NCBI GenBank assembly: GCA_013288885.1
Contig: JABDBA010000001.1
Coordinates: forward strand, 556,025 to 620,024
Source of the DNA: Gammaproteobacteria bacterium
GTDB taxonomy: Bacteria > Pseudomonadota > Gammaproteobacteria > JABDBA01
DNA length: 64,000 nucleotides
Direction of reading: 5' to 3'
In this document: positions 1,677 through 62,026 of the stretch, piece by piece
How the letters are laid out: each line of letters starts with the position of its first letter
How positions within the stretch are numbered: position 1 is the first letter of the stretch
The notes under the pieces: model-generated
Databases searched by the model: none
Told to the model about the DNA's origin: nothing
Seen by the model: only the letters and a program-made list of their open reading frames with translations
Made by a program: the position numbers and the translations under genes

Positions 1677-1700
1677 CAATTAGGGTAATACTAGGAGTGG

Positions 1701-2954: not shown

Positions 2955-3006
2955 TGGTATTCTGTTTATTTAAGCTATATTATGACATCTCTAAGGGCAT
3001 TTTACC

Positions 3007-3558: not shown

Positions 3559-3573
3559 AACTAAGGACAAAAT

Positions 3574-4703: not shown

Positions 4704-4715
4704 TGGGGGTGGGCT

Positions 4716-39048: not shown

Positions 39049-39110
39049 GATCTTTCTCCATTTAAGTAAATACTTCCGGCCAGGATTGGCGTTCATAAGA
39101 TTCAGGTATA

Positions 39111-43972: not shown

Positions 43973-44108
43973 ATGTAAACTCCTATATTAAGGTTGGTTT
44001 GGAATGGACACTTAGCTCAAGTAGTTTAAAAAATTGCTAAAGCTAAGCTATTTACATTATATTTGATTTTTTCATTGAATGCTTGTTCTTTAGCAAAATT
44101 ATTCGTTA

Positions 44109-47100
44109 TTAAATGTTAACACCATTAGGCAATAGATGGTGGGCAAGAGCTTGTTTTATTTTTTGAAAAATTTCCTGACGATTTTGATCATCGCGAATAA
44201 AGAGATGCCCTCCATTCAACTCATATGTTTGATATTCGGTTTTGGTATGTGTTACCCATCCTGCCATGTCATTATAAGAAACCCGGCTATCATGCTTTCC
44301 TGAAAATACAGTAATAGGTACTTCCAATGGAGTATCCTCTGTGAATTGATAATTTTTAACTAAGCGCATATCAGCTATTAAAATTGGTAACAATATTTTA
44401 AATAGTTCTTTATTCATAGCAGGGTCATAATTAATATCATTATGTTCATTAAAGATAGAAGCTAATTGGGTTAGCTGCTTGTCGTTCAACAAAGAGATCG
44501 TATCAGCATTATCTAATTCAAGTATGTTTAAATTATTGGTTTTTAATTGCTGCAATAAATTATTTAGACTTCGAGTCGGGGCCCGAGGGTCTGGAAAAGC
44601 CGATGCAAAAAATTGTATAGGTAATGGTAACTGACATTTCCGTAAATAGCGGATTAGCTCAAATGCAATTAATGCACCAAAACTGTGCCCAAAGAATGCA
44701 AAAGGCAAATTAAATTCATTTTTCAGATGCTCTGCTAAATTGTTAATTAAAAGTGCAATATCGGTGGTTATTTGTTCATTCATCCTATTTTCTCTGCCAG
44801 GTAGTTGTATAGGGCATATTTCTATTGTTTCTGGTAATGAGCGTTGCCAATTATTGTAAATGGAAGCACCAGCACCACCATAAGGAAAACAAAATAAACG
44901 TACTTTTGCATTGGGTTGAGTTTTTCTATATGCAATCCAGGAATTACCATTTTTTGTATTTTCTTTTGAATCGAAAGTATGGGTTGAGGGTTGAAGATTG
45001 AGTTGTTTTTGGGTGAGTATGAAATCAGTAATTTCAGCGATTGTTGGTCCTTGCAATAAGTTTTCTACAGAATAGCTTACCCCCAAATTCGTTTCTATTA
45101 TCTTCGTGAATGAGAGGGCCATGAGCGAGTCAATTCCAATCTCTCGTAAAGATTGATGGGTGTTGATATCATTGCTTGGCATAGAAAAAATAGCAGCGAT
45201 TTTTTCTACTAGATAATCAGTAATTTTTCCTTGGCGATGTTCAGGTGGTATAGAGTCTAAATTAAAATCATGCTGAGTATTGATATGCATAATTTGTTCG
45301 AGTGATATTTTATTGTTGAGTCTGGCCATATGCATATCTTTACAAACGGCAACAATGTGATTGTTATTGTCTATTAGGTACCAGTCGCCAATAATCCTTT
45401 CTCCATTTGGACTAATTTCTTTAAGTATAGTTAATAGAGATAAAGATTGGTCTGTGATGCCTGAATACAAAAATTTTCCTATCGTAGAGGCCACATAAGG
45501 TTGGTTAAGTTGTTCGGGTAGCAACATAAATAGAGGTTGTATACAGCCATCAATAATGCCGGGATGGACATTAAGTTTAAATTTGTCATTCACAACTGAA
45601 GCTGGGGTTTTAAATTCACACACCATTACTTTTTCTTCTAGCCAATATTGATGCGTCCAGCGGATACTTTCTCCAGCTGGCATTTCCATTGATGCAATGC
45701 GGTTATAAAGCTTTTCTGCATCATGCGATGAGATAGCTCGTTTTTTTATTTCATCAATGAGAATGGGGAGATCATATTTGATAATACTCAATGTTAATTT
45801 ACAGGTGGAGTTTTTTACCCAGTTGTTTTTATCAATCGGCTGACTGTAAAAAATGCAAGATAGTAAATCATTTCCTAGTTGTTCTAATATTAGATGGATC
45901 CTGATGGTGTTATTATTAGGAACTAATATTGGCGATAAAAAAGTAAGTTCTTCGACATTAAAGGTATGTTGTTGATAAAGATTGTTAACAACAAATGCTA
46001 ACATTTCAATAAAATAACCTGCATGTAATATATTGTAAGTATCTTTTAGTTCTGGTAATTGATTTATATTGAAAATAAATTCAAATTGTAGCAATGATAC
46101 GGGGGAAATAATTTGTTTTCCCTGTAAAGGGTAACTGCCGGTTTGTGCGCTTACTGTAGTATGACTACTATTTAAATTAGGCCAATAACTTTTAGGCTGC
46201 CATGGGTATGAAGGCATTTCAATGTATGGGTAGCTTCTTCTTTCTTCAAATTTAATCCAATTGATGGGGGAATTTTGTACATATAACTTGGCAATTATTT
46301 TTAAATCCAATGAGTTTAAGGGCATATGGGCTATATTTTTATATTCAATTAACAGATTTGGATCGTTACAATTTGTTTTTGTAAAAACGTTAACTGGAAT
46401 TTCAGATGGATTCTCAATTATTGCGCATAATAAATTGTATAGCTCAGCTATGCTGGAAGAAATTATTGCAACTTTATGAGAAAAATGGGCGCGTCTTAAG
46501 TGGGTATTAAAACATAGCTGAGCTAAATTTACGGTTAGATTATTTTTTAAATAATTACGCCAGAGTAGAATTAATTGGTTAAGCGCGACAGGATCTTTAG
46601 CCGATAAAGTAAACAATTCATTATTTGTAGATTCTATAGGCGCAGTTGATAAAGAAATAGACGCGAGCTTTTCTTGTTCGGTTAAATCGCGCACAATAAC
46701 ATGTGCATTGGTTCCACCAAAACCGAAACTACTAATTCCTGCTATACGTTGATCGTTATGTTTCGGCCAACCGATTGTATTTTTGGGGATCTTTAAGTTG
46801 TATTTATTAAATGGAATATGCGGATTTTGATTAATAAAATTAAGGTGGGGTGGTATTTGTGCATTTTTTAAAGCTAATGCTATTTTAATAATGCTGGACA
46901 TACCGGCCGCCGGTTCTAAATGGCCGAGATTAGTTTTTACAGAACCTATCCAACAAGGATTTTCTGGCTTTCGATTTTTGCTTATTATATTGCCCAGAGC
47001 TTGTATTTCTATCGGGTCACCTAAAAAAGTTCCCGTTCCATGACATTCCACATAAGATAACATCAAAGGGTCAATGCCCGCAGCGTTGTATACATCTCGC

Positions 47101-48041
47101 AGTAATTTTTCTTGCTGCAGGCCATTGGGTGCTGTTAATCCATTGGTTCGACCATCTTGATTAATACCACTGCCCGCGATGACGGCATAAATTCTATCTT
47201 TGTCTTCTATGGCTTTTGCTAATGGCTTTAATACAATTACACCAACCCCCTCACCTTGCACATAGCCGTTTGCTTGTGCATCAAATGTTTTGCATTGTCC
47301 ATCTTGCGATAGCATTTTTGCTTTTGATAGCGTTAAATTAATGGAGGGCAGTAAATTTAAACTAATACCACCCACAAGCGATAGATCACAACTATTATTC
47401 TGAATGTTTAAGCAAGCCAAATGTAGTGCTACCAATGATGAAGAGCATGCAGTATCAACAACAAGACTTGGGCCACGAAGATCAAATTGGTATGAGATGC
47501 GATTTGCAGCAATACTTGTGGCATTACCAGTGGGAAGATATAAAGCATCCATTTCTGTTTCAAGTTTTTGTAGATGACCCAATTGGCTTGGATATAAACT
47601 AGCAAATACACCTGTATTAGAGCCTGCCAGAGCCTCCGTCGTTAACCCTGCATCTTCAATTGCCTCATAAGTAACTTCTAACAATAAACGTTGTTGGGGA
47701 TCCATACGTACTGCTTCACGTGGAGTAATGCCAAAAAAATAAGCATCAAAGGCGCTGATGTTTGATAAAAAACCGCCCCAATAAGGGTGGTCTTTTTCGC
47801 GTTTAGTGATTTCATCGGTACCTTCTAATAATTGCCAGCGTTCCTCAGGTATATGCGTAATAACGTTTTTGCCATGAGTCAGTAATTGCCAGTAATCGTC
47901 TTTATTTGCCACTTGGGGAAACCGACAACTTACACCAATAATGGCAATAGGTTGATAAGAGTTAGATTTTTGGGTTTTTAATAAATGCTTGAGTTTATTG
48001 ATAGTATATAATGCTTTATGTAATGTCGTGGCTTCAGTCAT
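44109..48041 (-). CDS. AT-less PKS terminal module: KS-DH-like-ACP-TE
   Basis: DTACSSS/ECHGTGT/GHLE (KS), double-hot-dog region with HPGIIDGCIQ, IGIDSL (ACP), FCFPYGG, GHSFG and GGHLF (TE). Likely start MTEAT at 48041. Confidence 0.93.
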   Translation of the reverse strand: MTEATTLHKALYTINKLKHLLKTQKSNSYQPIAIIGVSCRFPQVANKDDYWQLLTHGKNVITHIPEERWQLLEGTDEITKREKDHPYWGGFLSNISAFDAYFFGITPREAVRMDPQQRLLLEVTYEAIEDAGLTTEALAGSNTGVFASLYPSQLGHLQKLETEMDALYLPTGNATSIAANRISYQFDLRGPSLVVDTACSSSLVALHLACLNIQNNSCDLSLVGGISLNLLPSINLTLSKAKMLSQDGQCKTFDAQANGYVQGEGVGVIVLKPLAKAIEDKDRIYAVIAGSGINQDGRTNGLTAPNGLQQEKLLRDVYNAAGIDPLMLSYVECHGTGTFLGDPIEIQALGNIISKNRKPENPCWIGSVKTNLGHLEPAAGMSSIIKIALALKNAQIPPHLNFINQNPHIPFNKYNLKIPKNTIGWPKHNDQRIAGISSFGFGGTNAHVIVRDLTEQEKLASISLSTAPIESTNNELFTLSAKDPVALNQLILLWRNYLKNNLTVNLAQLCFNTHLRRAHFSHKVAIISSSIAELYNLLCAIIENPSEIPVNVFTKTNCNDPNLLIEYKNIAHMPLNSLDLKIIAKLYVQNSPINWIKFEERRSYPYIEMPSYPWQPKSYWPNLNSSHTTVSAQTGSYPLQGKQIISPVSLLQFEFIFNINQLPELKDTYNILHAGYFIEMLAFVVNNLYQQHTFNVEELTFLSPILVPNNNTIRIHLILEQLGNDLLSCIFYSQPIDKNNWVKNSTCKLTLSIIKYDLPILIDEIKKRAISSHDAEKLYNRIASMEMPAGESIRWTHQYWLEEKVMVCEFKTPASVVNDKFKLNVHPGIIDGCIQPLFMLLPEQLNQPYVASTIGKFLYSGITDQSLSLLTILKEISPNGERIIGDWYLIDNNNHIVAVCKDMHMARLNNKISLEQIMHINTQHDFNLDSIPPEHRQGKITDYLVEKIAAIFSMPSNDINTHQSLREIGIDSLMALSFTKIIETNLGVSYSVENLLQGPTIAEITDFILTQKQLNLQPSTHTFDSKENTKNGNSWIAYRKTQPNAKVRLFCFPYGGAGASIYNNWQRSLPETIEICPIQLPGRENRMNEQITTDIALLINNLAEHLKNEFNLPFAFFGHSFGALIAFELIRYLRKCQLPLPIQFFASAFPDPRAPTRSLNNLLQQLKTNNLNILELDNADTISLLNDKQLTQLASIFNEHNDINYDPAMNKELFKILLPILIADMRLVKNYQFTEDTPLEVPITVFSGKHDSRVSYNDMAGWVTHTKTEYQTYELNGGHLFIRDDQNRQEIFQKIKQALAHHLLPNGVNI

Positions 48042-48060
48042 ATTAAATGCCCTATTATTG

Positions 48061-51000
48061 TCATCGACTAAGCTCATCAACCTGCATGAGCTCTTCTTCT
48101 AACAATTTATTAATTTGCTCATCATTAAGATGAGTCATTTTTTCTAAGAATTCATCCTCACTTAACGTTGACAATATATCCCCATTATTAGCTGCAGATT
48201 TTTGAGTTAGTGCTGGTGTTGTAGGTTGACATGATTGAATGATAAACCCAACCAGTTGATTGATGGTTGTATAACGAAAGAGATCCATGGGTGAAACTAT
48301 ATCCGGGTAAAAATCAGATAATCTACTCACAAAATTGATGCCGTTGATTGAATCAAGGCCATAATCTTGATAAGTACTATTGGTATCCATTTCAGTAATT
48401 TCTAAACCTAATATTTCTGCTAGAGCAGAGGCGACATTAGTGGTTATTTGTTCAGGATCTAAATCAATATTTAATTGCGCTGCTTGATTATTGATAGTAT
48501 GTTGAGCAGCAAAGTTGGCAAAGAGAGGTAATTTTCTGGTATCGGAATTTACTTTGAAGAATTTTTGCCAAAGCATTTTAAATACTGTTACAGTGGTACT
48601 ATGTTTATTATTCAATAAAAACTCTAGTATTTCCATTCCTTTTGGTATCGCAATTGTTGACATACCGACTGCGTCTAAGAAAGCACTGTGATTATATCTA
48701 AAACTCATTCCTTTATCAGCCCATGCAGTCCAGTTAATGCTTGTCGCAGGTAGTCCAAGTTGACGTCTGTAAGCAGCAAATCCATTTAAAAACTCGTTGG
48801 CCATGGCATAGGCGCTCAAACCACTCATGCCAAAATAAGGCATTGCAGCAATTGAAGAAAATAACACGAAGCAATCAAGGTCAGCTTTTTTAAATATCTC
48901 ATGTAATACTAAAGTTCCTTGGACTTTGACAGATAGTACTTTTTGCAGCAATTCTTTAGTCATTTTTGCGATAGGTATACTGTCGGTTGTAATGCCAGCT
49001 AGATGAAAGAGACCTTTAATGGATTTTCCCCATGATTGTTCGGTTTGTTCAATAATAGATTGCATTTTGATTTTATCGCAAACATCAACCGTGGCATATT
49101 TGACTTGAGCACCAAGCTTCTCAAGTGAAATCATATTGGTTAGTTTTTCTTGCAACGATGTCTCATGTGTTTTTGACCATTCGGATCGCTCAGGTAATGG
49201 TGTTGACCCTGTTAAAAGTAAAAACTTAGTGCCTTGTTTTACTAGCCATTGCGCTACTTCTGCCCCAAGTGCACCCAAACCGCCAGTTATTAATGCTGTT
49301 TCAGGAGCACGCCAACTTGTAGTTTTTATGTGGGTTGTCTCTTCCAGATGAGATGCAAGGCGGATCACATAGCGTGATTTTTCTCTAAAAGCCAAATAAT
49401 TTTCACCAGGTTCCAAATTTAGTAATTCTTGTGTGATAGCGCTAGCTTCTTCGCGTAGTCTTTTTTTAGAGTCTAAGTCAAGTAATAGTATTTTATAATC
49501 TGCGTGCTCGACAGAGAAAATGCGCATTAATGACCATAAATGGTGCTGCCATATTTGTATAGGGTCATTTTCAACAACGGGCTGGCTACTTCGTGTGACC
49601 AAACAGAACTTCAGCTTATTTTGCCAGTTTTGTTTTATAAGTCCCTGCAACAAAGAGAATAACTGAAGACTATTTTCAGCTTGTTGATTGTTAGAATATA
49701 AATCAGTTTGTTCTATCATTTGCTGCCGATCTTCTGCGAAATTAGCAAGATAAATTATTCCCTTGAGGTCTTTATTATAAATAGTGAAAATAGATGCAAA
49801 TAATTGGTGGTAATCACTGGAGCTGCTGGGGTTAATATAAAATACATTTTCCTTTAATTGTTCGAATTTTTCGCCAGCAAAACAATAGATACAAGAAGAT
49901 TTTCCTGGGGTATCTTGTAGTAAGCCCCCTAATTCTTTATCACTGAAAATAAGCCAACGTTCTGTTTCGATATTTGAGATACTTGTGTTATCGGTAGACT
50001 TTTGTTCCCAGCGAGTACAATAAAGCCAATCGTTTATATCGTTTGGTATTTCATAGTTTGTATCTTGCTTTTTTTCTTCATGCTGAATTACTGGAGGTGT
50101 TGGTGATTTATCGATAGCTTGCTGTTGTTGGTTTTGTGCGGTTGATGACGGAACCCAACAACGTCTTTTTGCAAACGGGTAAGTTGTTAAAAAAACTCGT
50201 TTTGGTTTATATGGAGTATAAAGTAGTTCCCAGTTTACTTTAGCTCCGTTTGTCCATAATGGTGTTATTTTTTCATATTCTGCTTGTTCTATAAATTCAG
50301 CTAAATTATGTTGAGGTTGTAGGGCTGCTTTATTGTTCTGCACGGGGGAACTTACCCATACTTGATTTATTGCATTGGCAGGATTAGTTAAATATGAATT
50401 AAGTTTATCTATTAAATCATTATATGTGGTTGCAAGAATAGCAAGTCTAGTAGGCATATTTTCGCGACCGACCTGTGAGGTATAACATATATTGCTCAAC
50501 CAGTTTTTTAGATCATCTTCAGTATTTTGTTTTTTACCTTCGCTAAGTAAGAAAGCATAAATTTGCTGCACGTAATCTTGCAGGCGATCGGCATTTTGCG
50601 CAGAGATTAACAATATAAATGGGATCTGTTTAGATTGAGCATCATTATTATTTCTGACGTCTGCAATATATTCTTCAATAATAATATGAATATTAGTACC
50701 GCCAGCACCAAAAGAGCTTACACCTGCTCTTCGTGGAAAGCCTGGTATAGGTGACCAATCACTTAATTCCCGCTGTACAAAGAATGGAGATTGTTTAAAG
50801 TCAATAAAGGGATTTAACTCTTCGGCATGAATAGAAGCCACTAATTTTTTATGCTGCATTTGTAATAATACTTTAGTCAGTTGCGAAATTCCTGCCGCTG
50901 ATTCTAAATGTCCAATGTTTGACTTCACAGAGCCGATCGCACAGAACTGTTTATCTTTAGTATAGTGCTCAAATGCTTCTTGTAGGCCTCTTATTTCTAT

Positions 51001-54000
51001 GGGGTCACCTAACGCCGTACCAGTACCGTGGGCTTCGATGTAAGATATACTGCGTGGGTCAATATTCGCTTTTTCTAATGCGGCTTTGATCACGGCTGCT
51101 TGCGCATTAGGATTGGGGATAGTGTAGCCGCTGGTTTTACCACCGTGGTTCATCGTGCTGCTTTTAATGACACCATAAATGCGATCATTATCTTTAATGG
51201 CTAATGATAGGGGTTTAAGCAGAACGGTACCTACTCCTTCTGAGGGCACATATCCTTGACCACCAGCAGCAAAGCTTGAACAGCGGCCTTGGTCAGACAT
51301 AAAACTTAAACTTCCAAGCATATGATATTTACAAGGGTGTAATGATAAATTAACTCCGCCAGCGATGGCCATAATACATTCGCCACGAAGAATGCTTTCA
51401 CAGGCTAAATGAATGGCAGCCAATGATGAAGAACAAGCGGTATCAACAGGATAACTGGGCCCATTTAAGTTAAAAAAATAGGAAACACGATTGGCAATAG
51501 AGAACATTTGAATATCTAATGGTATACGGTTGCCTTTTGCCCATTCGTCTGCAATAAATAATGGATAAAAATTATAAGTGACACCTGCAAATACGCCTAC
51601 TTTGCCGTTGGTTAAACGTTGTAAGCTTTCACGTGTATAACCTGCATCTTCAAATGTAGTCCAGACAGATTGTAAAAACAACCTTTCTTGTGGGTCGATT
51701 GTGGCTGCATCTGCGGGAGAAATTTTAAAAAGTAGTGGGTCAAACTTATCAATGTCTGGAATAAATCCACCATACTTAAAGTATTTTGTTTCTTCACCTA
51801 ATAAAACAGGATAATCTTTATAGTTCCAGCGCTCGATTGGAACTTCAGATATACAATCTCGTCCTTGCACTAAATTAGTCCATAGTTCATCAATATCTTT
51901 GGCTAAGGGATAAGTGCCGCTGAGGCCTATTATAGCAATGTCATTCGATTCATTAGTTTTTGCTGATTTATCAGGTTGACTTGGAGTAAACGTTTCTTGT
52001 GAAACCGAACAATTAGCATTGAGTTCCTCGCGCGGTTCGCCCAAATCATTATTTTGATTTCCAACTAATTTTAGTAAAGTCGGTTTATGCGATTGTTGAA
52101 AAAATAAGGCCAGATCCGCTATCTTGCTTCGTTCATAGAGTAGTGTTTTAGATAAACTGCCAAAATCTTTTTCTAAGCGTTCGGTAATCTCTAAACCTAT
52201 TAGGGAGTCTATACCATATTCTTCATAGGTTGCATCAGCAGAAATTTGATGTGACTGCAGCTGGAGTTTTTCGGCAAATATTTGTTGTAAATAATTTATA
52301 GTGAGATTTGATAAATCTATAGGTTGTGTTGCATTTTGACTGATAACTATTGGATTAGTTGTGGTTATTTCCGATTTTGCTGTTTGTATGTCAGCATCAA
52401 ACCAATAACGTTGTTTAATAAAAGGATAGGATGGCAGGCCCGCTAAGCGTAATTTTCTTTCTCCCGCATGTAAAATACCCCAGTCTATTTGAAAATTATT
52501 AATATAAAGATCGGCGAGTAATAATAACTTATCGCGATAGATCTCGGGAGGAAGGGCTTCATAGTTCTTTATGGCATCTATGGTCGATTTATATATTTCA
52601 TTAAATAAAGGCCCATTACAATTGTTTGTTGATGTTGTATTTCGTAGGCAATTATTAGGTAACTGGTTTTCCATCAGCAGTTCCAGCGTCTGTAATAAAT
52701 CTTCCAGTGAGGTTACTACTATGGCGCAGCGTGTATTGAAATGACTGCGGCCTGCATTAAGTGTAAAACTTAGATCCGCAAGATTTGTGGTTACTAAATT
52801 CATTTTTAACCAAACATGCAGATCTTTAAACTTCTGTATTAAGCTTGCCTCTTGTTTGGCTGATAGAGTAATTAAATAATAAGGTTTTAGTAGGGCAGAC
52901 GTTGATGAATTTTTAATCTGTGGATATTCTTCGATGACCATGTGTGCATTAGTTCCTCCAAAACCAAAAGAGCTCACTCCTGCGCGCCGTGGTATTTCGG
53001 TTCCAGCTCCATCTTTTAATCGGGGCCATCCCCGTGTTTTTTCAACAATGTAAAAGGGGCTATTAGATAAATCTATATACGGATTTAATTCTTTAAGATG
53101 TAAATTCCCAGGTATTGTTTCATGTTGCATGGCCAGTAGGACTTTAATAACTCCCGCAATCCCAGAAGCAGGTTCTAAGTGACCAATATTTGTTTTGACT
53201 GTACCAAGACCACAAAAAGCTTTTTGCTTTGAGGGCGTGCCTTGTTGCGATACTAATATATTAAACGCTTGTTTTATCCCTTCAATTTCAATAGGGTCAC
53301 CTAATTCAGTGCCAGTGCCGTGCGTTTCAATATAAGAGACAGTATTTATATCAATATTAGTTTGTTTATATGCTTTAACGAGTAGTTCGCTTTGGGCTGT
53401 TGTATTAGGAGCTGTCAATGATTGTGCTTTGCCCCCATGATTTACTGCAGACCCTTTGATAACTCCATAAATATGGTCGCCATCATTCAGAGCCATGTTT
53501 AAAGGTTTTAGCATAATAGTGGCGACACCTTCTCCTTTGACATAGCCGTTAGCAGTTTTATCGAAAGTTTTGCAACGACCATCAGGAGAAAGAGCGCCTA
53601 ATTGGCTGGTTACTACAAACGTTTGTGGATCTAGTATGAGGCTGACTCCACCTGCGATAGCAATATTGCACTCACCATTATGTAGTGCATTGACTGCACG
53701 GTGGATTGCTACTAAGGCACTCGAACAGGCAGTATCAATAGATTCACTGGGGCCATTCAAATTAAGAAAGTATGAAACTCGATTGGTGAGTAAAGCATGT
53801 GAATTACCGGTCGAGATATGCCCATGAAATATTTTATTCTGTTTTTGTATTAGAGTTTGATATTCTTGAAACTCAATTCCTGCAAAGATGCCTACTTCTT
53901 GTGCCGACAGTGAAAACGGGTCATAGCCAGCATCTTCAATGGTTTTCCAAACAATTTCTAAAAATAAGCGATGCTGTGGATCCATCAAATTTGCTTCACG

Positions 54001-57000
54001 GGCAGATATATTAAAAAAAGCTGCATCAAAAGTGTCAGCGCCATCTATAAAGCCACCCCATTTAGAATTGGTTTTAGTAGGGTTTTGTTTGGCATCGCCA
54101 TAATATTCACGCCAATCCCAGCGTTCGATAGGAATTTCAGTCACTAAATCATGGCTCGCTAGTAGATGCGCCCAAAATTCTGTCAGGTCTTTAGATTGAG
54201 GAAAATAGCCTTGCATACCGATAATTGCAATGGGCTCATGGTTAAAAGTCGATTTTATTGGTTTAATATAATTTATCTTTTGAGTTTCATACCGAAAAGA
54301 TGAAAAAACAATTGGAAAGGCTTCTAATAAATATTTACTTAGCGCAGTTATGTTAGTGTGTGTAAAAAAAACGATGGGGGCTAGTTCAATGCCATAGCGA
54401 TTTGCTAATTGCGCAGCCAATTCTTTTTGGACGATTGATTCTAAGCCTTGTTCACTAAATGAAGCTGTTAGATTGATAGCGTAAGTTTCTTTCTTTAATA
54501 ATTGCGCTACAAGCTGGACTAAATCTTGTTTAATTATTTCCAATTTTTCTTGTCTAAAATTGGGTTCTGTTAATTCGACCTTGATTGAAGTTGAATTTAC
54601 AGGTTGATTTAGATTAGGTACCCAATAATAATCTTTAGCAAACGGATATCCGGGCAATGAAACCCGTCGTTTAGGCAGTTTCAATGATTCCCATTCAATA
54701 TTACTGCCTGTTACGTATAAACGCGCTAAGGAGAATTCTTTTGATGACGATAAGCGATTGTTTGTTTGAGCTAAACCATCATTAACAATATAATTTTCAG
54801 GAAACTGATTTTGTTGGATGCGTATTAAAGTTTCTTGCAATTCAGTAATCGATTTTACAATCAGAGCACAGCGTTTATCGAAGTGATTTCGACCTAGATT
54901 CAATGTATAGCTGATTGCCGCCAGATCTGGTGGATCAGTTTTTTTCATTAACCATTCGCTTAAATCATTGATGCGTTGTTTTAGTGCCCCATCTGTTTTT
55001 GCAGATAAAGTAATTAAGTAAGAGGTGGATTCATTTGAGTTTATCGGGTTCTCATTCAAATGATCTCTATATTCTTCAACGATAATATGTGCATTTGTAC
55101 CGCCAAATCCGAACGAGCTTATGCCAGCACGTCGTGGGATTTCAGCACCAGCTGCTGTTTTTAATCGATCCCATGGTTGGGTTTTGTTAACAAGATAAAA
55201 GGGTGTTTTATCTAGATCGATATAAGGGTTTAATTCAGTGAAATTTAAATTGCCAGGTATTTGCCCCTGTTGCATAGACAATACTGTTTTAACTAAACCA
55301 GCAATACCTGCTGCTGCTTCCAAATGACCAATATTCGTTTTGATAGCGCCTAAGCCACAATAATTATTATTCAATGGTTTTGATGTCTGTTCTGCTGATA
55401 AAGTATGAAATGCATTTTTTAGGCCATTTATTTCTATGGGATCACCGATTGAAGTACCCGTACCATGAGTTTCAATATAGCTAATAGTGTCGATCGGAAC
55501 TTGCGCACGTTGACATGCGCTGATGATAACATCTGCTTGTGCATTTGGGTTGGGTACGGTAATTGAACTTACTTGGCCACCATGATTGACTGCAGTACCT
55601 TTGATGACTGCGTAAATATGATCTCCATCGGCTTGTGCTTTATTTAATTGCTTTAAGAGGATTGCCACAATTCCTTCGCCGCGCACATAACCATTCGCTG
55701 CTTTATCGAAAGTTTTGCATTTGCCATCTTCGCTTAATATTCCGGCTTTGCTGGCGTGTAGATGAGGGGTAAATATGGTATTAACTGCACCTGCAAGTGC
55801 AATATCACAATCACCATTATTTATTGCTTGTACCGCTTGATGAATTGCAACAAAAGAGCTGGAACACGCTGTATCAACGGTTGTACTTGGTCCATGTAAA
55901 TCAAGTGTGTAAGAGACGCGATTGGCTAATATTGTGGATGTTATGCCAGTCATCATATAAACATCTGTAATCCCTTTTTTTTGTAAAAGTTCGATATAAT
56001 CATAAGTAAACATACCTACAAAAACACCCGTTTTAAAGTTAGCAAGTGTTTTGGTGCTATAGCCAGCATCTTCTATGGTTTTATATGTTGTTTGTAAAAA
56101 AAGACGTTGCTGCGGGTCGATAAGTTCAGCTTCTCGTGGTGAAATATTAAAAAAGTTTGCATCAAACTCGCCAACTCCATCGATGAAGCCGCCCCAGATA
56201 TCTTTTGTTTTATCATTTTCTAAGAGGGGATCTCCGTAGCAAGCTTTCCAGTCCCAACGATCTTGGGGTATTTCAGTAATTACTTCTTTACCAGATATCA
56301 GATTATTCCAGAAAGTATCTAAATCAGCAGCACCGGGAAAGAGGCCATTCATACCAATGATGGCGATATCATTATCATTGGTTGGAATTGCAATAAACTC
56401 ATTGGTTTTTGCAGGTTCAATTCGCACTACATTCGTGAATTTTTGCGATATTAGATAATTATAAAGCCCATCTAAAGTCGTATATTCAAATAAATTAGCA
56501 GGAGTGAGGTTTACTTGATATTCTCTGTTGATTAACACCATTAGATTGGTTATTGTGATCGAATCAAAACCATATTCATTAACCGAATCACTTAAGTCAA
56601 TTTCATTCGCATCAACATTTAATATGGAGGCAACAAGGTTAATAAAATCTTTTTCAAATTGCTGTAAATCTATTTCCGTAGTTACTTTGATTTCATTATC
56701 TGGGTGTGGATGAGGTTCTTCGATAGTTTGATTGGTTTTAAAATGTTTTCTTACAATTTCTAGTTTTTCTTCGATGAATAATGTTTTGCACAGCGATCGT
56801 TGTAGCTTTCCGCTGGTAGTCTTGGGGATAGCACCGGGTTTGATTAGTATTACTCCATGCAGGTCAATGCCATGATGTTCAGAAATAGCTGCACGTATAG
56901 ATTTAATGATTTCATTTTGCGATGAGTTAGATATATCGTCTTTAATTTCTTGTATGAAAACTAACTCTTCATTTTTATTATTTGATAGGGTGAAACAAGC

Positions 57001-58443
57001 ACAAGGTTTATCCAAATTAAATTGACTGAGCGCATTTTTCACCGTAGCTTCTAAATCTTGCGGGTAATATTTTTTACCATAGATGACAATAAGCTCTTTA
57101 AGCCGACCTGTAAGGTATATTTCATTATTTTTTACAAACCCTAAATCGCCTGTTCGAAAGTAGCATTTTTTAGAATTAGTTAAAGTAGCATAAAATGCCG
57201 ATTTTGTTTCCTCAAGTCGCTGCCAGTAACCACTGGCTAATGATTTACCGGTTATCCAAAGTTCACCTATTTTGTTTTTGTTAACAGGTACCCGTGTATC
57301 AGGGTCTACAACAGTTATTTGCAACCCATTTAGCAAACGCCCACTGCTTACAAATATTTGTTGGGTGGTTTCTTCTCTTGCGGTAATAACTTCATTGTTT
57401 TTTAAAGCTTCTGCGTTTAAGCTTAAAGCTATAGGTTTCTTTTTATTGCGGTTAACAGCAACAGTTCCGGTTACTTCTGACATGCCATATGCCGGACAAA
57501 AATATTTTAACTTAAAACCATAAGCACTTAATTTTTTACTAAAATCATCTAAGGTTTGTTGCCGAACAATTTCGCCGCCATTAATAGCTACTTTCCAACT
57601 TTGTAAATTGAGTCCTATTAATTCGATGGAATTAATCTCTCGTACACACAAATCATAACCAAAATTTGGACAGCCACTGTGGGTGACTCGATATTTTGCA
57701 ATTGCTTCAAGCCAAGACGCGGGTCGTCGAATAAATCTTTCAACCGGCATTAAAATAGCGAGTGATCCATGATAAAGCGGTGTTAATTGGCCGCAAACTA
57801 ATCCGTATACATGTGAATGCGGTGCCCAGGTTAAACTGATACTACTTTTTTTATAGTTCCAGGCTTTTGCATTCTCGACTAAGCTATGGGTCAAGCTTCC
57901 ATGTCGAATAATAGTACCTTTGGGGGCAGAAGTTGAACCAGAGGTATATTGTAAATAGGCGATAGTATCGTCTTGAATAAGCGGCAATTGATACATTATG
58001 GACAATTCATCATTTAAGTCACGCGTATCCAAAATAAGTATAGGCTTATTATTTAACGTTAAATGGTTTTGTGCAGTTAAAATACAGTGAATTTCAGCAT
58101 CATCTGCTATTGCATTTAGTATTGGTAATGATTTTTTAAAATTATCATCATTAGAATAGATAACTGGCACGGCAATAGCGCCAGCATATAAGCAACCCAT
58201 AAAAGCACAAATAAAATCCAAACCCATGGGGTAGAGCAGCAATACGCGTTGCGCAAATAAATCTTTACTCTGCAAATAAACTGCAATGGCGCGCGCTCTT
58301 TTGTCTAATTCACCATAAGTAATAGAAAGAGGTTCTTGTTGGTCATCGTTTAAAAAAAGATAAGCAGATTGGTGGGGTCGGCGTTTAGCTCTATCTTGTA
58401 AGACTAAAACTAAGTTTTTATATTTCTTGTTTAAGATAAACAT
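48061..58443 (-). CDS. trans-AT PKS: FAAL-like acyl-AMP ligase-ACP-KS-ACP-KS-ACP-KS-KR-ACP
   Basis: LQYTSGSTSAPKG, YGMSE, RTGDLG, PKTTSGK (ligase); three intact KS (DTACSS, HGTGT, GHLE); ACPs GFDSI, GLESI, GIDSL, GLDSI; KR TGGLGALG...FSS...YAMAN; no GHSxG AT motif. Confidence 0.95.
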   Translation of the reverse strand: MFILNKKYKNLVLVLQDRAKRRPHQSAYLFLNDDQQEPLSITYGELDKRARAIAVYLQSKDLFAQRVLLLYPMGLDFICAFMGCLYAGAIAVPVIYSNDDNFKKSLPILNAIADDAEIHCILTAQNHLTLNNKPILILDTRDLNDELSIMYQLPLIQDDTIAYLQYTSGSTSAPKGTIIRHGSLTHSLVENAKAWNYKKSSISLTWAPHSHVYGLVCGQLTPLYHGSLAILMPVERFIRRPASWLEAIAKYRVTHSGCPNFGYDLCVREINSIELIGLNLQSWKVAINGGEIVRQQTLDDFSKKLSAYGFKLKYFCPAYGMSEVTGTVAVNRNKKKPIALSLNAEALKNNEVITAREETTQQIFVSSGRLLNGLQITVVDPDTRVPVNKNKIGELWITGKSLASGYWQRLEETKSAFYATLTNSKKCYFRTGDLGFVKNNEIYLTGRLKELIVIYGKKYYPQDLEATVKNALSQFNLDKPCACFTLSNNKNEELVFIQEIKDDISNSSQNEIIKSIRAAISEHHGIDLHGVILIKPGAIPKTTSGKLQRSLCKTLFIEEKLEIVRKHFKTNQTIEEPHPHPDNEIKVTTEIDLQQFEKDFINLVASILNVDANEIDLSDSVNEYGFDSITITNLMVLINREYQVNLTPANLFEYTTLDGLYNYLISQKFTNVVRIEPAKTNEFIAIPTNDNDIAIIGMNGLFPGAADLDTFWNNLISGKEVITEIPQDRWDWKACYGDPLLENDKTKDIWGGFIDGVGEFDANFFNISPREAELIDPQQRLFLQTTYKTIEDAGYSTKTLANFKTGVFVGMFTYDYIELLQKKGITDVYMMTGITSTILANRVSYTLDLHGPSTTVDTACSSSFVAIHQAVQAINNGDCDIALAGAVNTIFTPHLHASKAGILSEDGKCKTFDKAANGYVRGEGIVAILLKQLNKAQADGDHIYAVIKGTAVNHGGQVSSITVPNPNAQADVIISACQRAQVPIDTISYIETHGTGTSIGDPIEINGLKNAFHTLSAEQTSKPLNNNYCGLGAIKTNIGHLEAAAGIAGLVKTVLSMQQGQIPGNLNFTELNPYIDLDKTPFYLVNKTQPWDRLKTAAGAEIPRRAGISSFGFGGTNAHIIVEEYRDHLNENPINSNESTSYLITLSAKTDGALKQRINDLSEWLMKKTDPPDLAAISYTLNLGRNHFDKRCALIVKSITELQETLIRIQQNQFPENYIVNDGLAQTNNRLSSSKEFSLARLYVTGSNIEWESLKLPKRRVSLPGYPFAKDYYWVPNLNQPVNSTSIKVELTEPNFRQEKLEIIKQDLVQLVAQLLKKETYAINLTASFSEQGLESIVQKELAAQLANRYGIELAPIVFFTHTNITALSKYLLEAFPIVFSSFRYETQKINYIKPIKSTFNHEPIAIIGMQGYFPQSKDLTEFWAHLLASHDLVTEIPIERWDWREYYGDAKQNPTKTNSKWGGFIDGADTFDAAFFNISAREANLMDPQHRLFLEIVWKTIEDAGYDPFSLSAQEVGIFAGIEFQEYQTLIQKQNKIFHGHISTGNSHALLTNRVSYFLNLNGPSESIDTACSSALVAIHRAVNALHNGECNIAIAGGVSLILDPQTFVVTSQLGALSPDGRCKTFDKTANGYVKGEGVATIMLKPLNMALNDGDHIYGVIKGSAVNHGGKAQSLTAPNTTAQSELLVKAYKQTNIDINTVSYIETHGTGTELGDPIEIEGIKQAFNILVSQQGTPSKQKAFCGLGTVKTNIGHLEPASGIAGVIKVLLAMQHETIPGNLHLKELNPYIDLSNSPFYIVEKTRGWPRLKDGAGTEIPRRAGVSSFGFGGTNAHMVIEEYPQIKNSSTSALLKPYYLITLSAKQEASLIQKFKDLHVWLKMNLVTTNLADLSFTLNAGRSHFNTRCAIVVTSLEDLLQTLELLMENQLPNNCLRNTTSTNNCNGPLFNEIYKSTIDAIKNYEALPPEIYRDKLLLLADLYINNFQIDWGILHAGERKLRLAGLPSYPFIKQRYWFDADIQTAKSEITTTNPIVISQNATQPIDLSNLTINYLQQIFAEKLQLQSHQISADATYEEYGIDSLIGLEITERLEKDFGSLSKTLLYERSKIADLALFFQQSHKPTLLKLVGNQNNDLGEPREELNANCSVSQETFTPSQPDKSAKTNESNDIAIIGLSGTYPLAKDIDELWTNLVQGRDCISEVPIERWNYKDYPVLLGEETKYFKYGGFIPDIDKFDPLLFKISPADAATIDPQERLFLQSVWTTFEDAGYTRESLQRLTNGKVGVFAGVTYNFYPLFIADEWAKGNRIPLDIQMFSIANRVSYFFNLNGPSYPVDTACSSSLAAIHLACESILRGECIMAIAGGVNLSLHPCKYHMLGSLSFMSDQGRCSSFAAGGQGYVPSEGVGTVLLKPLSLAIKDNDRIYGVIKSSTMNHGGKTSGYTIPNPNAQAAVIKAALEKANIDPRSISYIEAHGTGTALGDPIEIRGLQEAFEHYTKDKQFCAIGSVKSNIGHLESAAGISQLTKVLLQMQHKKLVASIHAEELNPFIDFKQSPFFVQRELSDWSPIPGFPRRAGVSSFGAGGTNIHIIIEEYIADVRNNNDAQSKQIPFILLISAQNADRLQDYVQQIYAFLLSEGKKQNTEDDLKNWLSNICYTSQVGRENMPTRLAILATTYNDLIDKLNSYLTNPANAINQVWVSSPVQNNKAALQPQHNLAEFIEQAEYEKITPLWTNGAKVNWELLYTPYKPKRVFLTTYPFAKRRCWVPSSTAQNQQQQAIDKSPTPPVIQHEEKKQDTNYEIPNDINDWLYCTRWEQKSTDNTSISNIETERWLIFSDKELGGLLQDTPGKSSCIYCFAGEKFEQLKENVFYINPSSSSDYHQLFASIFTIYNKDLKGIIYLANFAEDRQQMIEQTDLYSNNQQAENSLQLFSLLQGLIKQNWQNKLKFCLVTRSSQPVVENDPIQIWQHHLWSLMRIFSVEHADYKILLLDLDSKKRLREEASAITQELLNLEPGENYLAFREKSRYVIRLASHLEETTHIKTTSWRAPETALITGGLGALGAEVAQWLVKQGTKFLLLTGSTPLPERSEWSKTHETSLQEKLTNMISLEKLGAQVKYATVDVCDKIKMQSIIEQTEQSWGKSIKGLFHLAGITTDSIPIAKMTKELLQKVLSVKVQGTLVLHEIFKKADLDCFVLFSSIAAMPYFGMSGLSAYAMANEFLNGFAAYRRQLGLPATSINWTAWADKGMSFRYNHSAFLDAVGMSTIAIPKGMEILEFLLNNKHSTTVTVFKMLWQKFFKVNSDTRKLPLFANFAAQHTINNQAAQLNIDLDPEQITTNVASALAEILGLEITEMDTNSTYQDYGLDSINGINFVSRLSDFYPDIVSPMDLFRYTTINQLVGFIIQSCQPTTPALTQKSAANNGDILSTLSEDEFLEKMTHLNDEQINKLLEEELMQVDELSR

Positions 58444-58615
58444 ATGAAGCTTCCATTCATTATATATTGAGCGATTATACTATAATTTGATCGAAGAAAT
58501 GCGCATATTTATTTTCAGAAAAAATCATTTACATCAATATTAAAGTGTGTCACCATAATAATCATTAGTACAAGTTACAGGAAGTCGCTCTATTAACTAA
58601 GGCAAGGATGAATTT

Positions 58616-60251
58616 ATGATTGATGCTGTAGTGGATAAAACTAAGCACAGCTTTAACATTACTGATAATCAACAAATAACAATTGGCGCGAATAGCAGAT
58701 TAACGCTAGTTAACTCTAAATGTCTTGCCAACAATAATATACCTGTCAAATTAAGTAAAGATTCATATGCGGTGATGAATCAATCGCATCAATTCTTAAA
58801 ATCGTATATTGATCGGCGCGTACCTGTTTACGGCATTAACACGCATTTTGGTGATCAAGTTAATTTGTTAGAGCCACATCTTAAATCCGACGAACAATCT
58901 TATTATCAGGCTATCCAAGCGCGGCAAGAAAATCTTATTCGCTCACACGCGTGCGGATTAGGAAAAATAATACCACCTGAAATAATTAAAGTAACAATGA
59001 TGTTGCGTGCACATTGTTTATCACAGGGATATTCAGGAGTTGCACCCGACCATATAGAAAAGATTTTAAATTTCTTAAATGCAGGTATAGTGCCAATTGT
59101 GCGTTGTTATGGTTCGATAGGTGCAAGTGGAGATTTAATTCCACTGGCAATGATTGCAGCCGCTGTAGTGGGTGAAGATGTAGAAGTATTATATCAAGAT
59201 AAAATAATGCGTGCTCCACAAGCCATTGCGATGGCAGGATTAAAACCATTTAAACTGCAAATGCGCGATGGTTTATCGATGATTAATGGCACTTCTTTTA
59301 TGACGGCAATAGCGAGTGTTGCACTCTATGATCTGAAACGCTTATTTCTGCAGATGATCAGCGCTATTGCAATGACGCTAGAATCTATGATGATTATTAG
59401 TAGTGGCTATCACCCATTGGTTCATCAAGTGAAACATCATGTGGGCCAAATGCGAGTCAATGAGATTATTTTGAGTTTTTGGGAGAACAGCCAATTATTA
59501 TTTAACTTAGATGAATTGCGTATAGCTAATGCCGATCAACATTCGGCAACCGGGAATAGTAATTCTGAATTAAGACCTGTGCAAGATTATTATTCGTTAC
59601 GTGCAATATCGCAAGGGTTTGGGCCCTTTTATGAAAATCTAGATCGTGCAACGGTTTGGGTAGAGAACGAGATGAATTCTGTCAATGATAATCCTATTAT
59701 CGATGCGGTTGGTAAACAAATTCATCAAGGTGCAAATTTTATGGGTTATTATATCACTGATGCTTGTGATATTTTAAAAAATGAATATTGCGCAGGCATC
59801 CACTTGGTTACATGCGTTGCTCGCAAACATGGTGCATCCGCGCAAAAATAATAATTTACCGACAAATCTTATTCAGGACCCTGGCAAATATAATGGCTTC
59901 CGTCCGATTCAATTACTTGCAGCTGCGTTAGCAGTTCAAAATCGAAAATTAGCACAATCACAACAAGCATTTATGCTGCCGACTGAGGGCGATAATCAAG
60001 ATGTAAATAGTTTGGGCACACATGCGGCATTAGATTTTCAAGAAGCAGTAGCGAATTTGGAAAGATTAACGGCCATTTTGATGTTGGCATCAACCCAAGC
60101 ACTAGAGTTTCGTGGCATCGAGAAAGCAAGCCCTAAAGCACAAGCTATTTATCAAACAGTGAGGGGATCTTCACCCACGCTAGCAGCTTGTCGTCCGATG
60201 ACCGAAGAAATGAACGCTGTTGTAGGTTTGTTGCAAGCAGAAAAAATTTGA
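58616..60251 (+). pseudogene. MIO-dependent aromatic amino acid ammonia-lyase/aminomutase, split by a 1-nt frameshift
   Basis: VYGINTHFG, GASGDL (MIO), MINGTS, QDYYSLR, NSVNDNP, GANF in ORF 58616..59851; NQDVNSLG and QALEFR in +1-frame ORF 59781..60251. Removing one A from A6 at 59776-59781 restores ...DILKMNIAQ. May be a sequencing error. Confidence 0.85.
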
Positions 60252-60272
60252 CATTGTTTTAAGGGGATTCTT

Positions 60273-61049
60273 ATGGGGCGTATGCATTTATTTGAGTTTG
60301 AAGATCAATCGTGGTGTCCTCATTTTATAAGAGAGGCCACGACAGATTTTTTATTTACGTTGTATGGTTTGATGGGAATGTACGAATCAGCTTTCGAAAA
60401 GATTGTTGAGGTATTAAATAAAACAAAATTTAATACTATAATTGATTGTTGTTCAGGTAGTGGTGGAGCGGTTCAATATTTGCGTGAGTATCTAGATAAA
60501 ATAGATAACAAGTCAACTACTATAACATTAACTGATAAATTTCCAAATATTAAATCATTTAGAGAATTAGAGGCTTCTTATCCAAATGGAATAATTGCTC
60601 ACGAAGAATCACTTGATGCAACTCAATTGCCGAAAAAGATGAAAGGCATGAGAACTTTTTTTTCTTCATTTCATCATTTTAGGCCTGAAATGGCTGTAAA
60701 AATATTACAAAATGCAGTTAATGCTGATGCACCTATAGGAATTTTCGAGTGTACAAGGCGTCATCCCCTCGAATTTCTGACAGTTTTGTTTAATCCTATT
60801 GTAACATTGTTAGTATTGCCTTTTTCTAAAAAACTAAATTGGTCGAAATTTTTATTTACTTATCTTATCCCAATTACACCATTTACAACAATGTGGGACT
60901 ATTTTGCGTCGAATATGAGGACTTATTCGCCAAAGGAATTAAACGAATTAATATCTAATTTAGATGCTCCAAATTATCAATGGGAGATTGGCAAAATAAA
61001 ATCAAAGAGGGGCAACTGTATTGTAACTTATTTAATTGGTTATAAGTGA
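60273..61049 (+). CDS. Class I SAM-dependent methyltransferase-like protein
   Basis: IIDCCSGSGG SAM-binding-like motif, LTDKFP, LDAT, FFSSFHHF, IGIFE. Confidence 0.7.
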   Translation: MGRMHLFEFEDQSWCPHFIREATTDFLFTLYGLMGMYESAFEKIVEVLNKTKFNTIIDCCSGSGGAVQYLREYLDKIDNKSTTITLTDKFPNIKSFRELEASYPNGIIAHEESLDATQLPKKMKGMRTFFSSFHHFRPEMAVKILQNAVNADAPIGIFECTRRHPLEFLTVLFNPIVTLLVLPFSKKLNWSKFLFTYLIPITPFTTMWDYFASNMRTYSPKELNELISNLDAPNYQWEIGKIKSKRGNCIVTYLIGYK

Positions 61050-61055
61050 TTTTGA

Positions 61056-61913
61056 GTGCTGACTATGCTTGGATATTTATTTCCTGGACAAGGTTCACAA
61101 ATATGCGGAATGGGTAATACTCTGTTTGATGAATTTGCTGAAATTAGTGCTCAAGCGGATGAGATCTTAGGTTACTCCATAAAGAACTTGTGTTTACACG
61201 ATCCATTACAACAATTAAACCAAACTGAATACACACAGCCAGCTTTGTATATAGTTAATGCCATCACTTATTTTAAAAAACTAAAAGATACTCGTTTAAA
61301 GCCAGATTATGTTGCTGGCCACAGTCTGGGTGAATATAATGCATTACTAGCAGCGGAAGTTTTTGATTTTCAAACCGGTTTGCAACTGGTAAAAAAACGC
61401 GGTGAACTTATGAGCCAAGCTACGAATGGGGCTATGGCTGCTATCGTGGGTTTAACCAGCATGGAAATTAAACAATTGTTAGAAGATAATCATTTAACTG
61501 ATATTACTATTGCTAATTACAATTCATATAAGCAATCGGTAATTTCGGGTATAAAAAACGATATCGATCAATCACGTCAAATATTTGAAAAAATAAAAGA
61601 AGTCTCTTTTATCTCACTTAAAGCCAGTGGCGCTTTTCACTCACCTTATATGCTATCGGCACAACAGGAATTTGCTGAATTTTTAAAGGAATTTGAATTT
61701 TCTGTTCCAACAATCCCGGTACTAGCCAATATTGATGCTGATTTTTATCATCCTGCCGCCATGCGATCAAACATGAGTCAGCAAATCACACATTCTGTAC
61801 GATGGATTGATACTGTTGAATATTTGCTCAGCCAAAGTAATGTAGTATTTGAAGAAATAGGGCCGGGGAATGTATTAACTGGGATTATCCGTCGAATAAA
61901 AAATGGTCAATAG
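61056..61913 (+). CDS. Stand-alone malonyl-CoA:ACP transacylase (trans-AT)
   Basis: FPGQGSQ, TQPALY, GHSLGEY, R, GAM, NYNS, SGAFHS (malonyl-type), EIGPG.VL; next to the AT-less PKS. Confidence 0.95.
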   Translation: MLTMLGYLFPGQGSQICGMGNTLFDEFAEISAQADEILGYSIKNLCLHDPLQQLNQTEYTQPALYIVNAITYFKKLKDTRLKPDYVAGHSLGEYNALLAAEVFDFQTGLQLVKKRGELMSQATNGAMAAIVGLTSMEIKQLLEDNHLTDITIANYNSYKQSVISGIKNDIDQSRQIFEKIKEVSFISLKASGAFHSPYMLSAQQEFAEFLKEFEFSVPTIPVLANIDADFYHPAAMRSNMSQQITHSVRWIDTVEYLLSQSNVVFEEIGPGNVLTGIIRRIKNGQ

Positions 61914-62026
61914 TCTTACTTGTCTCTTTTGGTCATTCCATTTACGCATTATACTGGCGAAGTTTCAGTCTATTTGCTACATTTAAGTTATAATCATAAC
62001 AAATAAGACTGAGGGATTAGGAACGC

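Follow-up and report, generated by a model that had tools for sequence, protein, structure and literature searches.

The window, a 64,000-nucleotide stretch of gammaproteobacterial DNA, carries a trans-AT polyketide synthase (PKS) gene cluster at positions 44109–61913. It is probably an uncharacterised, recurrent form within the known legioliulin family, with a product type that is a shorter relative of legioliulin. Our main reading, to which we give a probability of about 60%, is that the locus is a four-extension member of this family and makes a 3-(aryl-vinyl)-8-hydroxyisocoumarin. The kind of system is already known, and the window reveals nothing new in kind. A form exactly one module shorter than the legioliulin line recurs in uncultured relatives of Legionella and Coxiella, where KR-less and other forms occur as well. 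Such a natural module-deletion series could serve to test colinearity and ring formation in trans-AT PKSs, and it leads one to expect several related isocoumarins that fluoresce under UV.

Organisation of the cluster

The limits 44109..61913 given in an earlier note on this DNA proved exact, and the layout it had described, FAAL-ACP, KS-ACP, KS-ACP and KS-KR-ACP on protein 1 and KS-DH*-ACP-TE on protein 2, was borne out by Pfam, NCBIfam and motifs. Both PKS proteins are encoded on the minus strand; on the plus strand lie the lyase, a FabD-type AT and, between them, a protein of 258 aa. The MIO lyase, the methyltransferase (by its fold) and the malonyl trans-AT that the note places divergent from the PKS were all found, but a frameshift not mentioned there interrupts the lyase gene.

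PKS protein 1 (3460 aa; 48061..58443, minus strand) was delineated by Pfam, NCBIfam and motifs and is colinear with its Legionella and MAG homologues; Pfam finds four PP-binding stretches, three KS and one KR in it. Its loading region comprises a FAAL-type ligase (residues 16–564, with AMP-binding 16–407 and a C-terminal subdomain 450–564) and an ACP (601–664). Module 1 consists of KS1 (~690–1120) and an ACP with the sequence GLES (~1300–1380), module 2 of KS2 (~1400–1835) and an ACP (~2050–2130), and module 3 of KS3 (~2165–2595), a KR (2831–3243; Pfam KR 3049–3243) and an ACP (~3335–3400). This KR, the only one in the cluster (48715..49953, minus strand), has the Rossmann motif GGLGALG and its catalytic Tyr in SAYAMAN. 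PKS protein 2 (44109..48080, minus strand) measures 1323 aa from a TTG codon, but the conservation of Met14 points to 48041 as its start. Pfam, invariant positions in alignment A1, the DH fold and motifs give it KS4 (43–470; Pfam 43–415), DH* (~640–935; PS-DH 785–925), an ACP (955–1021) and a TE (1061–1310, GHSFG).

A motif scan confirmed the intact C-H-H triads claimed for the four KS, with DTACSS, HGTGT and NxGH in 4/4. Pfam gave no PF00698 match, and hence no integrated AT domain, in either PKS protein; remnants of the KS-AT linker (PF22621, PF22336, PF16197) follow every KS. The free-standing malonyl-CoA:ACP transacylase (61056..61913, plus strand; 285 aa) is FabD-type, scoring 344 bits against TIGR00128 (cut-off 260.9) with GHSLG and GAFHS motifs. 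It is a second fabD copy, 33% identical to the housekeeping fabD at G000:C7:9619-10479, and is predicted to be a dedicated trans-AT serving the AT-less modules.

Comparison with the legioliulin cluster and its relatives

Ahrendt and colleagues reportedly established the legioliulin structure and a module model of the lgl cluster in 2013, in the L. parisiensis/L. dumoffii group. Named Legionella species, most of them blue-white-fluorescent and including L. parisiensis (P0132) and L. tucsonensis (L041/L060), carry FAAL-KS-DH-KR-KS-KS-KS-KR followed by KS-DH*-ACP-TE; the first of these arrangements is found in L. parisiensis P0132 (4825 aa) and 29 other representatives. Residues 9–1293 of PKS protein 1 align with residues 4–1244 of the L. 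tucsonensis PKS at 52% identity, and residues 1294–3415 align with residues ~2720–4838. The ~1470 Legionella residues in between (DH-KR-ACP-KS) have no counterpart in the window, where neither a DH nor a KR lies between KS1 and KS2. In a quick IQ-TREE phylogeny of 61 KS domains, KS1 of the window clusters with the first Legionella KS (68% identity), KS2, KS3 and KS4 fall into the clades of Legionella KS3, KS4 and KS5 with support of 100, 100 and 100, and no KS of the window joins the clade of Legionella KS2 (6 rows). On this sequence evidence, window KS1–KS4 are orthologues of Legionella KS1, KS3, KS4 and KS5. By both alignment and KS tree, the window lacks exactly one DH-KR-ACP-KS unit, in support of the reasoning in the earlier note. 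The first extension module of Legionella, KS-DH-KR-ACP, presumably makes the second vinyl unit of legioliulin.

Features in common with the lgl cluster (L066, P0132, L041/L060) are a FAAL-ACP loading region in one protein with the first KS (52% identity), an MIO lyase gene that lies divergently or close by (57–60% identity, with the ASG motif present in the window lyase), the terminal series KS-ACP, KS-ACP, KS-KR-ACP and KS-DH*-ACP-TE with one-to-one KS orthology, the same His-less DH* motif and a FadL-type neighbour. The differences are that the Legionella line performs five extensions and the window line, short of the unit after the first KS, four; that the window has its own AT, whereas none is within view at the blue-white Legionella loci and 7/32 loci have one; and that the window, unlike the lgl cluster, has a methyltransferase-fold gene. 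The lyases differ as well, that of the window being frameshifted and having a Ser-His pair where the Legionella lyases have Ser-Leu.

Legioliulin is described as made by a trans-AT PKS from cinnamic acid as starter, in agreement with the cinnamate-primed origin given in the earlier note; it is the sole characterised product of the cluster family, and beyond fluorescence no biological role was found for it (PMC5126622). The terminal "tetramodular series" of the legioliulin PKS is said to build the benzene ring, a remark that fits the four modules of the window (PMC7586987). The same paper also credits four little-reducing terminal modules of the psymberin and lobatamide trans-AT PKSs with the salicylate or isocoumarin ring and calls these assembly lines otherwise unrelated (PMC7586987).

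The draft genome that contains the window is of the uncultured type, 84% complete and in 49 contigs, and searches for further genomes of its genus, family and order gave this genome alone. Relatives were found by a profile scan of genome contigs with alignment A1; the same scan with the ligase alone gave no relative. The architecture of the window recurs in 16–17 other metagenomic protein clusters of uncultured relatives. The cluster is therefore not a one-off. The module arithmetic of the earlier note, four extensions with a KR in module 3 only, is supported by colinearity with Legionella. A further group lacks the KR (20/120 representatives; G208/L043, G005, UBA6002/L044 and G183/L050, from Gammaproteobacteria/Coxiellaceae MAGs). 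Its members agree with the window in the loading region, in three KS-ACP modules and in KS-DH*-ACP-TE, with 51% identity across PKS protein 1, but lack window residues 2883–3325, which hold the KR, so that the C6 oxygen would stay in their products. Two of them, G005 and G183, resemble the window further in the Ser-His pair of their lyases and in encoding a homologue of its 258-aa protein.

A proposed pathway and its alternatives

We then propose a pathway whose starter, mode of cyclisation, product and methylation are predictions. The MIO lyase would remove the amino group of an aromatic amino acid, and the FAAL-type domain would adenylate the aryl-acrylic acid so formed and load it onto the first ACP. 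The FabD-type AT would supply malonyl units to four AT-less modules, of which modules 1 and 2 would leave their β-ketones in place and module 3, through its KR, would reduce the future C6 carbonyl. In module 4, the DH-fold domain that lacks the His would act with the TE in ring closure, aromatisation and lactone release. Since the DH-KR-ACP-KS unit is missing and the remaining KS are orthologous, the colinear prediction, given cinnamate as starter, is 3-styryl-8-hydroxyisocoumarin. It would fall short of legioliulin by one C2 (vinyl) unit, and the neighbouring methyltransferase may methylate it. Our searches found no literature on styrylisocoumarins.

The first step of this model meets the frameshift. 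The lyase consists of two overlapping plus-strand ORFs created by one extra A in an A6 run (59776..59781; +1), across which the homologues read DILKMNI in a single frame. The N-terminal ORF (58616..59851; 411 aa) has 388 native residues with the MIO motif GSIGASGD and a 23-residue out-of-frame tail, and the C-terminal ORF (59781..60251; 156 aa), in the other frame, has the motif NQDVNSLG. One possible explanation, which we consider unlikely, is that this organism retains the cluster as a relic that lost its function recently, with no starter and no product. Homologous lyases are single frames of 540–590 aa in 20/20 other clusters examined, and the MAG L051/L129 combines the window architecture with an intact lyase. 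The frameshift is probably not a platform artefact, because 50/51 homopolymers of at least six bases in the cluster genes leave their frames intact, which makes a systematic error improbable. The Logan contig of sequencing run X1 (word depth ~700), from a separate assembly, has the same A6 run and 0 differences over 44000–62000; the genome assembly itself was probably made from X1, which is therefore not independent confirmation of it. However, both PKS proteins, the methyltransferase and the AT have open frames and intact motifs, so any loss would be recent. Moreover, the second lyase ORF starts at a native Met exactly at the break, and two fragments might still form. Aryl-acrylic acids could also come from the environment, and a FadL/TodX-type outer-membrane channel identified by Pfam (41102..42379, plus strand) is encoded nearby, as it is near the cluster in 18/32 related loci. 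Given the broken lyase, production by the predicted pathway may need an outside supply of acid or may be lost.

The identity of the aryl starter, phenyl or substituted, is uncertain, because the selectivity pair of the lyase is Ser-His, unlike the Ser-Leu of 15/15 Legionella lyases aligned. Ser-His matches the aligned place in histidine ammonia-lyase. A true histidine ammonia-lyase is nevertheless unlikely: the C-terminal fragment has NQDVNSLG as in aryl lyases and mutases, where histidine ammonia-lyase has Glu at the corresponding place, and among solved structures those of cyanobacterial PALs match best (2nyn, 167 bits).

It is improbable that the primer is something other than an aryl-acrylate, for instance a fatty acid taken up by the FAAL-type domain to give an alkyl-substituted 8-hydroxyisocoumarin or a resorcylic-type product. 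Among NCBIfam models the ligase matches those of fatty-acyl-AMP ligases best, none of which reaches its cut-off, and this naming would count against aryl-acrylate priming. The broken lyase points the same way, as do related proteins of 5285–5821 aa whose loading regions differ, with enoyl-CoA-hydratase-type domains and without FAAL. Against this, the MIO lyase lies divergent to and next to the PKS in the window as well as in G208, G005, G183, G401 and G405, and the ligase is colinear with, and 52% identical to, the Legionella loading region, for which cinnamic acid is reported as starter (PMC5126622).

Colinearity itself is open to exceptions. Modules of trans-AT PKSs are sometimes skipped or used more than once, and domains acting in trans are known, which weighs against a colinear prediction, and a four-KS line in which a module iterates or a KR or DH acts in trans could still yield legioliulin or a longer polyene homologue. 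We regard this as very improbable here. The extra vinyl unit of legioliulin needs KR and DH after the first extension, and module 1 of the window has neither; the only DH-fold domain of the window is without the canonical His. Furthermore, each of three discrete architectures (five KS; four KS and a KR; four KS and no KR) is found many times over, as would be expected if each had a product of its own.

The role of the DH* domain

The DH* domain of the last module (45276..46163, minus strand) has the double hot-dog dehydratase fold and matches the CurJ DH with a TMt of 0.87. The asterisk given to it on first reading was apt: HxxxGxxxxP is absent and HPGIIDxxxQ, with its DxxxQ, is kept. Despite the fold and DxxxQ, the His motif that marks a catalytic PKS dehydratase is therefore missing, its place being taken by Glu or Asp in 7/7 family members for which an alignment with a canonical DH was made. 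The dehydration and aromatisation step thus has no assigned catalyst, which counts against the predicted product. His686, His839, Asp844 and Gln848 are invariant in 22/22 aligned family members, and the same invariant His, Asp and Gln occur in the DH* of at least six lines without a KR in the preceding module. Because these residues are kept even in KR-less lines, DH* could be read as a ring-closing catalyst rather than a dehydratase. It is tempting to speculate, with considerable reserve about the proposal as a whole, that DH* is a ring-closing and aromatising catalyst, the trans-AT counterpart of fungal product-template domains, that the family is a natural combinatorial series made up of five-KS lines, four-KS lines with or without a KR and forms with other loading regions, and that in the subgroup of the window the Ser-His lyase and the cluster-specific methyltransferase give a non-cinnamate starter and a new fluorophore. 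Release without aromatisation, as a pyrone, linear acid or macrolactone rather than an isocoumarin, would agree with the missing His and with the lack of a separate cyclase in the cluster by Pfam, but it is highly improbable given the invariance of the four DH* residues and four terminal modules orthologous, KS by KS, to those of the Legionella PKS credited with the benzene ring (PMC7586987).

The putative methyltransferase and flanking genes

The 258-aa protein (60273..61049, plus strand) is predicted to be a divergent member of the class I SAM-dependent methyltransferase fold. It has the motif DCCSGSGG and no match in Pfam or NCBIfam. Its AF2 model has a pLDDT of 92, and Foldseek gives probability 1.0 to NovO, CouO, Coq5 and PZN methyltransferases at a TM of only ~0.5. 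D58, G62, G65 and D88 are invariant in its family. The family as a whole is not PKS-linked: in a metagenome scan, cluster neighbours were seen in 1/80 loci (L131, 59% identity) and in none of the other 79 (36–46% identity), with 32/80 loci at least 6 kb long. Only a close subfamily is linked to the PKS, comprising G183, G005 and L131 plus 16 by an indirect match, namely equal lengths of the contigs in the homologue and PKS lists. A 260-aa ORF of G005 with an O-methyltransferase dimerisation-domain match was rejected as a homologue at only 22% identity.

Downstream of the TE gene, a 507-aa ORF (42449–43972) belongs to no family, has no counterpart in 32 related loci and was not counted as part of the cluster. 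On the other side, a GGDEF-EAL protein identified by Pfam (62027..64000, plus strand) extends past the end of the window, and its homologue flanks the cluster in several relatives.

Cluster anatomy and the module missing relative to Legionella

The cluster contains two PKS genes on the minus strand. In the 3460-aa product of the first (PKS1; 48061-58443), Pfam and NCBIfam place a FAAL-type ligase, ACP, KS, ACP, KS, ACP, KS, KR and ACP, and in the 1323-aa product of the second (the TE protein; 44109-48080) KS, DH, ACP and TE. The opposite strand encodes a MIO lyase, a protein of 258 aa and a transacylase of the FabD type. The same scans detected no AT domain in either PKS protein. The transacylase scores 344 bits against TIGR00128 (cut-off 260.9) and carries the motifs GHSLG and GAFHS; a second fabD of the genome, 33% identical to it, lies on another contig in fab-gene context. 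The anatomy and coordinates claimed in an earlier note on this DNA are thus borne out by the ORF listing and domain scans, as are the intact C-H-H triads, with DTACSS, HGTGT and NxGH found in all four KS. The KR retains both the Rossmann motif and the catalytic Tyr. The genome, an 84% complete, 2.59-Mb draft, stands alone in its genus, family and order within the set of genomes searched.

Aligned by blastp, PKS1 residues 9-1293 map to residues 4-1244 of the L. tucsonensis counterpart and 1294-3415 to ~2720-4838, leaving ~1470 Legionella residues (DH-KR-ACP-KS) without counterpart in PKS1. In a quick IQ-TREE tree of 61 KS domains, window KS1 sits next to the first KS of Legionella (68% identity; support 97 for a clade of 10). 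Window KS2 joins Legionella KS3 in a clade of 12, window KS3 joins Legionella KS4 in a clade of 15 and window KS4 joins the TE-protein KS in a clade of 15, each with support 100. The Legionella KS2 clade (6 rows) contains no window KS. PKS1 residues 2883-3325 are absent from KR-less relatives.

Predicted product and the atypical dehydratase domain

Legioliulin, the Legionella fluorophore, is 8-hydroxy-3-(4-phenylbuta-1,3-dienyl)isocoumarin, and the title of a 2004 paper names it an isocoumarin. Its assembly would demand cinnamate and five malonates, with KR and DH acting after extension 1, KR after extension 4 and the others unreduced, a pattern that the five-KS Legionella architecture matches exactly. 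One paper describes legioliulin as made by a trans-AT line that starts from cinnamic acid (PMC5126622), and another assigns its benzene ring to a terminal tetramodular series of the PKS (PMC7586987). In the window this tetramodular series comes straight after the loading module, from which colinearity predicts 3-styryl-8-hydroxyisocoumarin (C17), one vinyl unit shorter than legioliulin. For the shortened legioliulin-type product proposed in the earlier note, the module comparison with Legionella supports the logic but not the chemistry. Our literature search found no paper on styrylisocoumarins, and the accessible portions of the literature mentioning legioliulin describe no shorter variant.

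The last module carries a DH-fold domain (DH*) that keeps HPGIIDxxxQ and lacks HxxxGxxxxP, in agreement with the atypical DH claimed earlier. Its model (pLDDT 78) matches the curacin CurJ/CurK dehydratases with TMt up to 0.87. When the canonical DH from the first Legionella module serves as the reference, Glu/Asp replaces the catalytic His in seven of seven family members, including L. parisiensis. His686, His839, Asp844 and Gln848 are invariant across all 22 members in the alignment, and in at least six of these the preceding module has no KR. Together, the loss of His, the invariant residues and the KR-less preceding modules point to a possible part for DH* in closing or aromatising the ring instead of a simple dehydration.

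The lyase and the methyltransferase-fold protein

The closest solved relatives of the window lyase are cyanobacterial PALs, and NQDVNSLG lies in its C-terminal part. At the lyase selectivity pair, PAL has Phe-Leu and TAL has His-Leu. This pair is Ser-His in the window and in genomes G005 and G183, and Ser-Leu in 15 Legionella lyases and those of locus L065 and genomes G208, G401 and G405. The aryl group may be phenyl or a substituted ring.

The lyase is split into two overlapping ORFs. Full-length homologues carry DACDILKMNI within a single frame, and in the window the frame shifts at the Lys of this segment, inside an A6 run (59776-59781) where five A would preserve it. A Logan contig shows 0 differences across 44000-62000 at a word depth of ~700; since its run, the only public one containing the stretch, is flagged as a possible source of the assembly, this is not independent confirmation. 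The two PKS genes keep their frames open across 42 homopolymers of 6-8 bases, and the methyltransferase-fold and AT genes across eight, which makes a platform-wide homopolymer error an unlikely cause. A native Met adjoining the break starts the second ORF. The frameshift may silence the pathway in this genome.

Each of the three Ser-His clusters encodes a homologue of the 258-aa protein (61% identity to the window's in G183, 56% in G005), and none was within view in any Ser-Leu cluster examined. Its AF2 model (pLDDT 92) has a fold that we assign with confidence to the class I methyltransferases; Foldseek gives probability 1.0 to NovO, CouO, Coq5 and others, at a TM of only ~0.5, and motif I reads DCCSGSGG. 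In 16 cases, members of its close subfamily and family PKS proteins come from contigs of equal length, an indirect match. Product methylation is plausible. A PKS linkage of the wider family was rejected, with cluster neighbours at one of 80 metagenome loci.

Related loci and neighbouring genes

A class-wide search recovered full-length TE-protein homologues at 50-55% identity. A named-genome scan yielded 32 related loci (L043-L074), which we sorted by domain tblastn. In 18, three KS and a KR follow an upstream first module that shows a KR, with or without DH; these loci take in all 15 Legionella/Fluoribacter-labelled loci, L. parisiensis, tucsonensis, anisa, bozemanae, steigerwaltii and gormanii among them. 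L051 has the domain order of the window, L052 such a first module without the later KR, three (L043, L044, L050), and probably also L048, no KR, and three (L045-L047) a different upstream region; five were too short to classify.

PKS1 was also searched against 5.8 billion proteins, and the best 120 cluster representatives were domain-scanned. The order FAAL-KS-DH-KR-KS-KS-KS-KR accounts for 30, including all species-named Legionella rows (L. parisiensis P0132 among them), the KR-less FAAL-KS-KS-KS for 20, and the window's FAAL-KS-KS-KS-KR for 18, counting its own protein and P0182, whose KR was found by domain scan and is missing from the precomputed Pfam list. FAAL-KS-KR-KS-KS-KR and FAAL-KS-DH-KR-KS-KS-KS account for four each, and other architectures for 44. 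None of the 18 window-type representatives is a species-named row. The window architecture is thus a recurrent variant of the legioliulin family and not a singular find.

The FAAL-KS-DH-KR-KS-KS-KS variant (P0159 from Aquicella siphonis, 4636 aa; P0156, P0168, P0178; L052) keeps the first reducing module, has a penultimate module without KR and includes a named cultured species. The L045-L047 lines (P0184, P0174, P0169, P0160, P0172; 5285-5821 aa) are related but lack the FAAL ligase; they carry an additional KS upstream as well as enoyl-CoA-hydratase-type domains, a KS of the 'starter' clade is internal, and two of the three genomes lack a close lyase homologue. Two further PKS genes lie outside the window on the same contig (258022-259542 and 298042-299556), in open frames of 2829 and 1612 aa; the 1612-aa frame includes an AT-like stretch.

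A 507-aa ORF (42449-43972, minus), which immediately follows the TE gene on its downstream side, encodes a helical, charged protein with two internal ~200-residue repeats (~20-215, ~225-430) and an Ala/Pro/Ser-rich tail; it has no Pfam/NCBIfam family and no counterpart across the 32 loci. A 1121-aa protein (35023-38388, plus) consists of numerous TPR repeats and, at its C-terminus, a stretch of glycosyltransferase family 9 (heptosyltransferase), and L. tucsonensis has a TPR-methyltransferase fusion upstream of its PKS. Two tandem LuxR/GerE-type regulator paralogues (39256-40089 and 40114-40944, plus), which share ~70% identity by tblastn, are adjacent to the cluster, as is a solitary response-regulator receiver (38578-39096, minus); all three may regulate it. 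The cluster has a GGDEF-EAL protein (62027-64000, plus; also L040:17695-19794, L042:2656-4758, L041:1985-4084 and L131:7805-9745) at its flank in the window, in G005, G183, L. tucsonensis and L131, and at five of the 32 loci surveyed, a recurrence that hints at a conserved c-di-GMP link.
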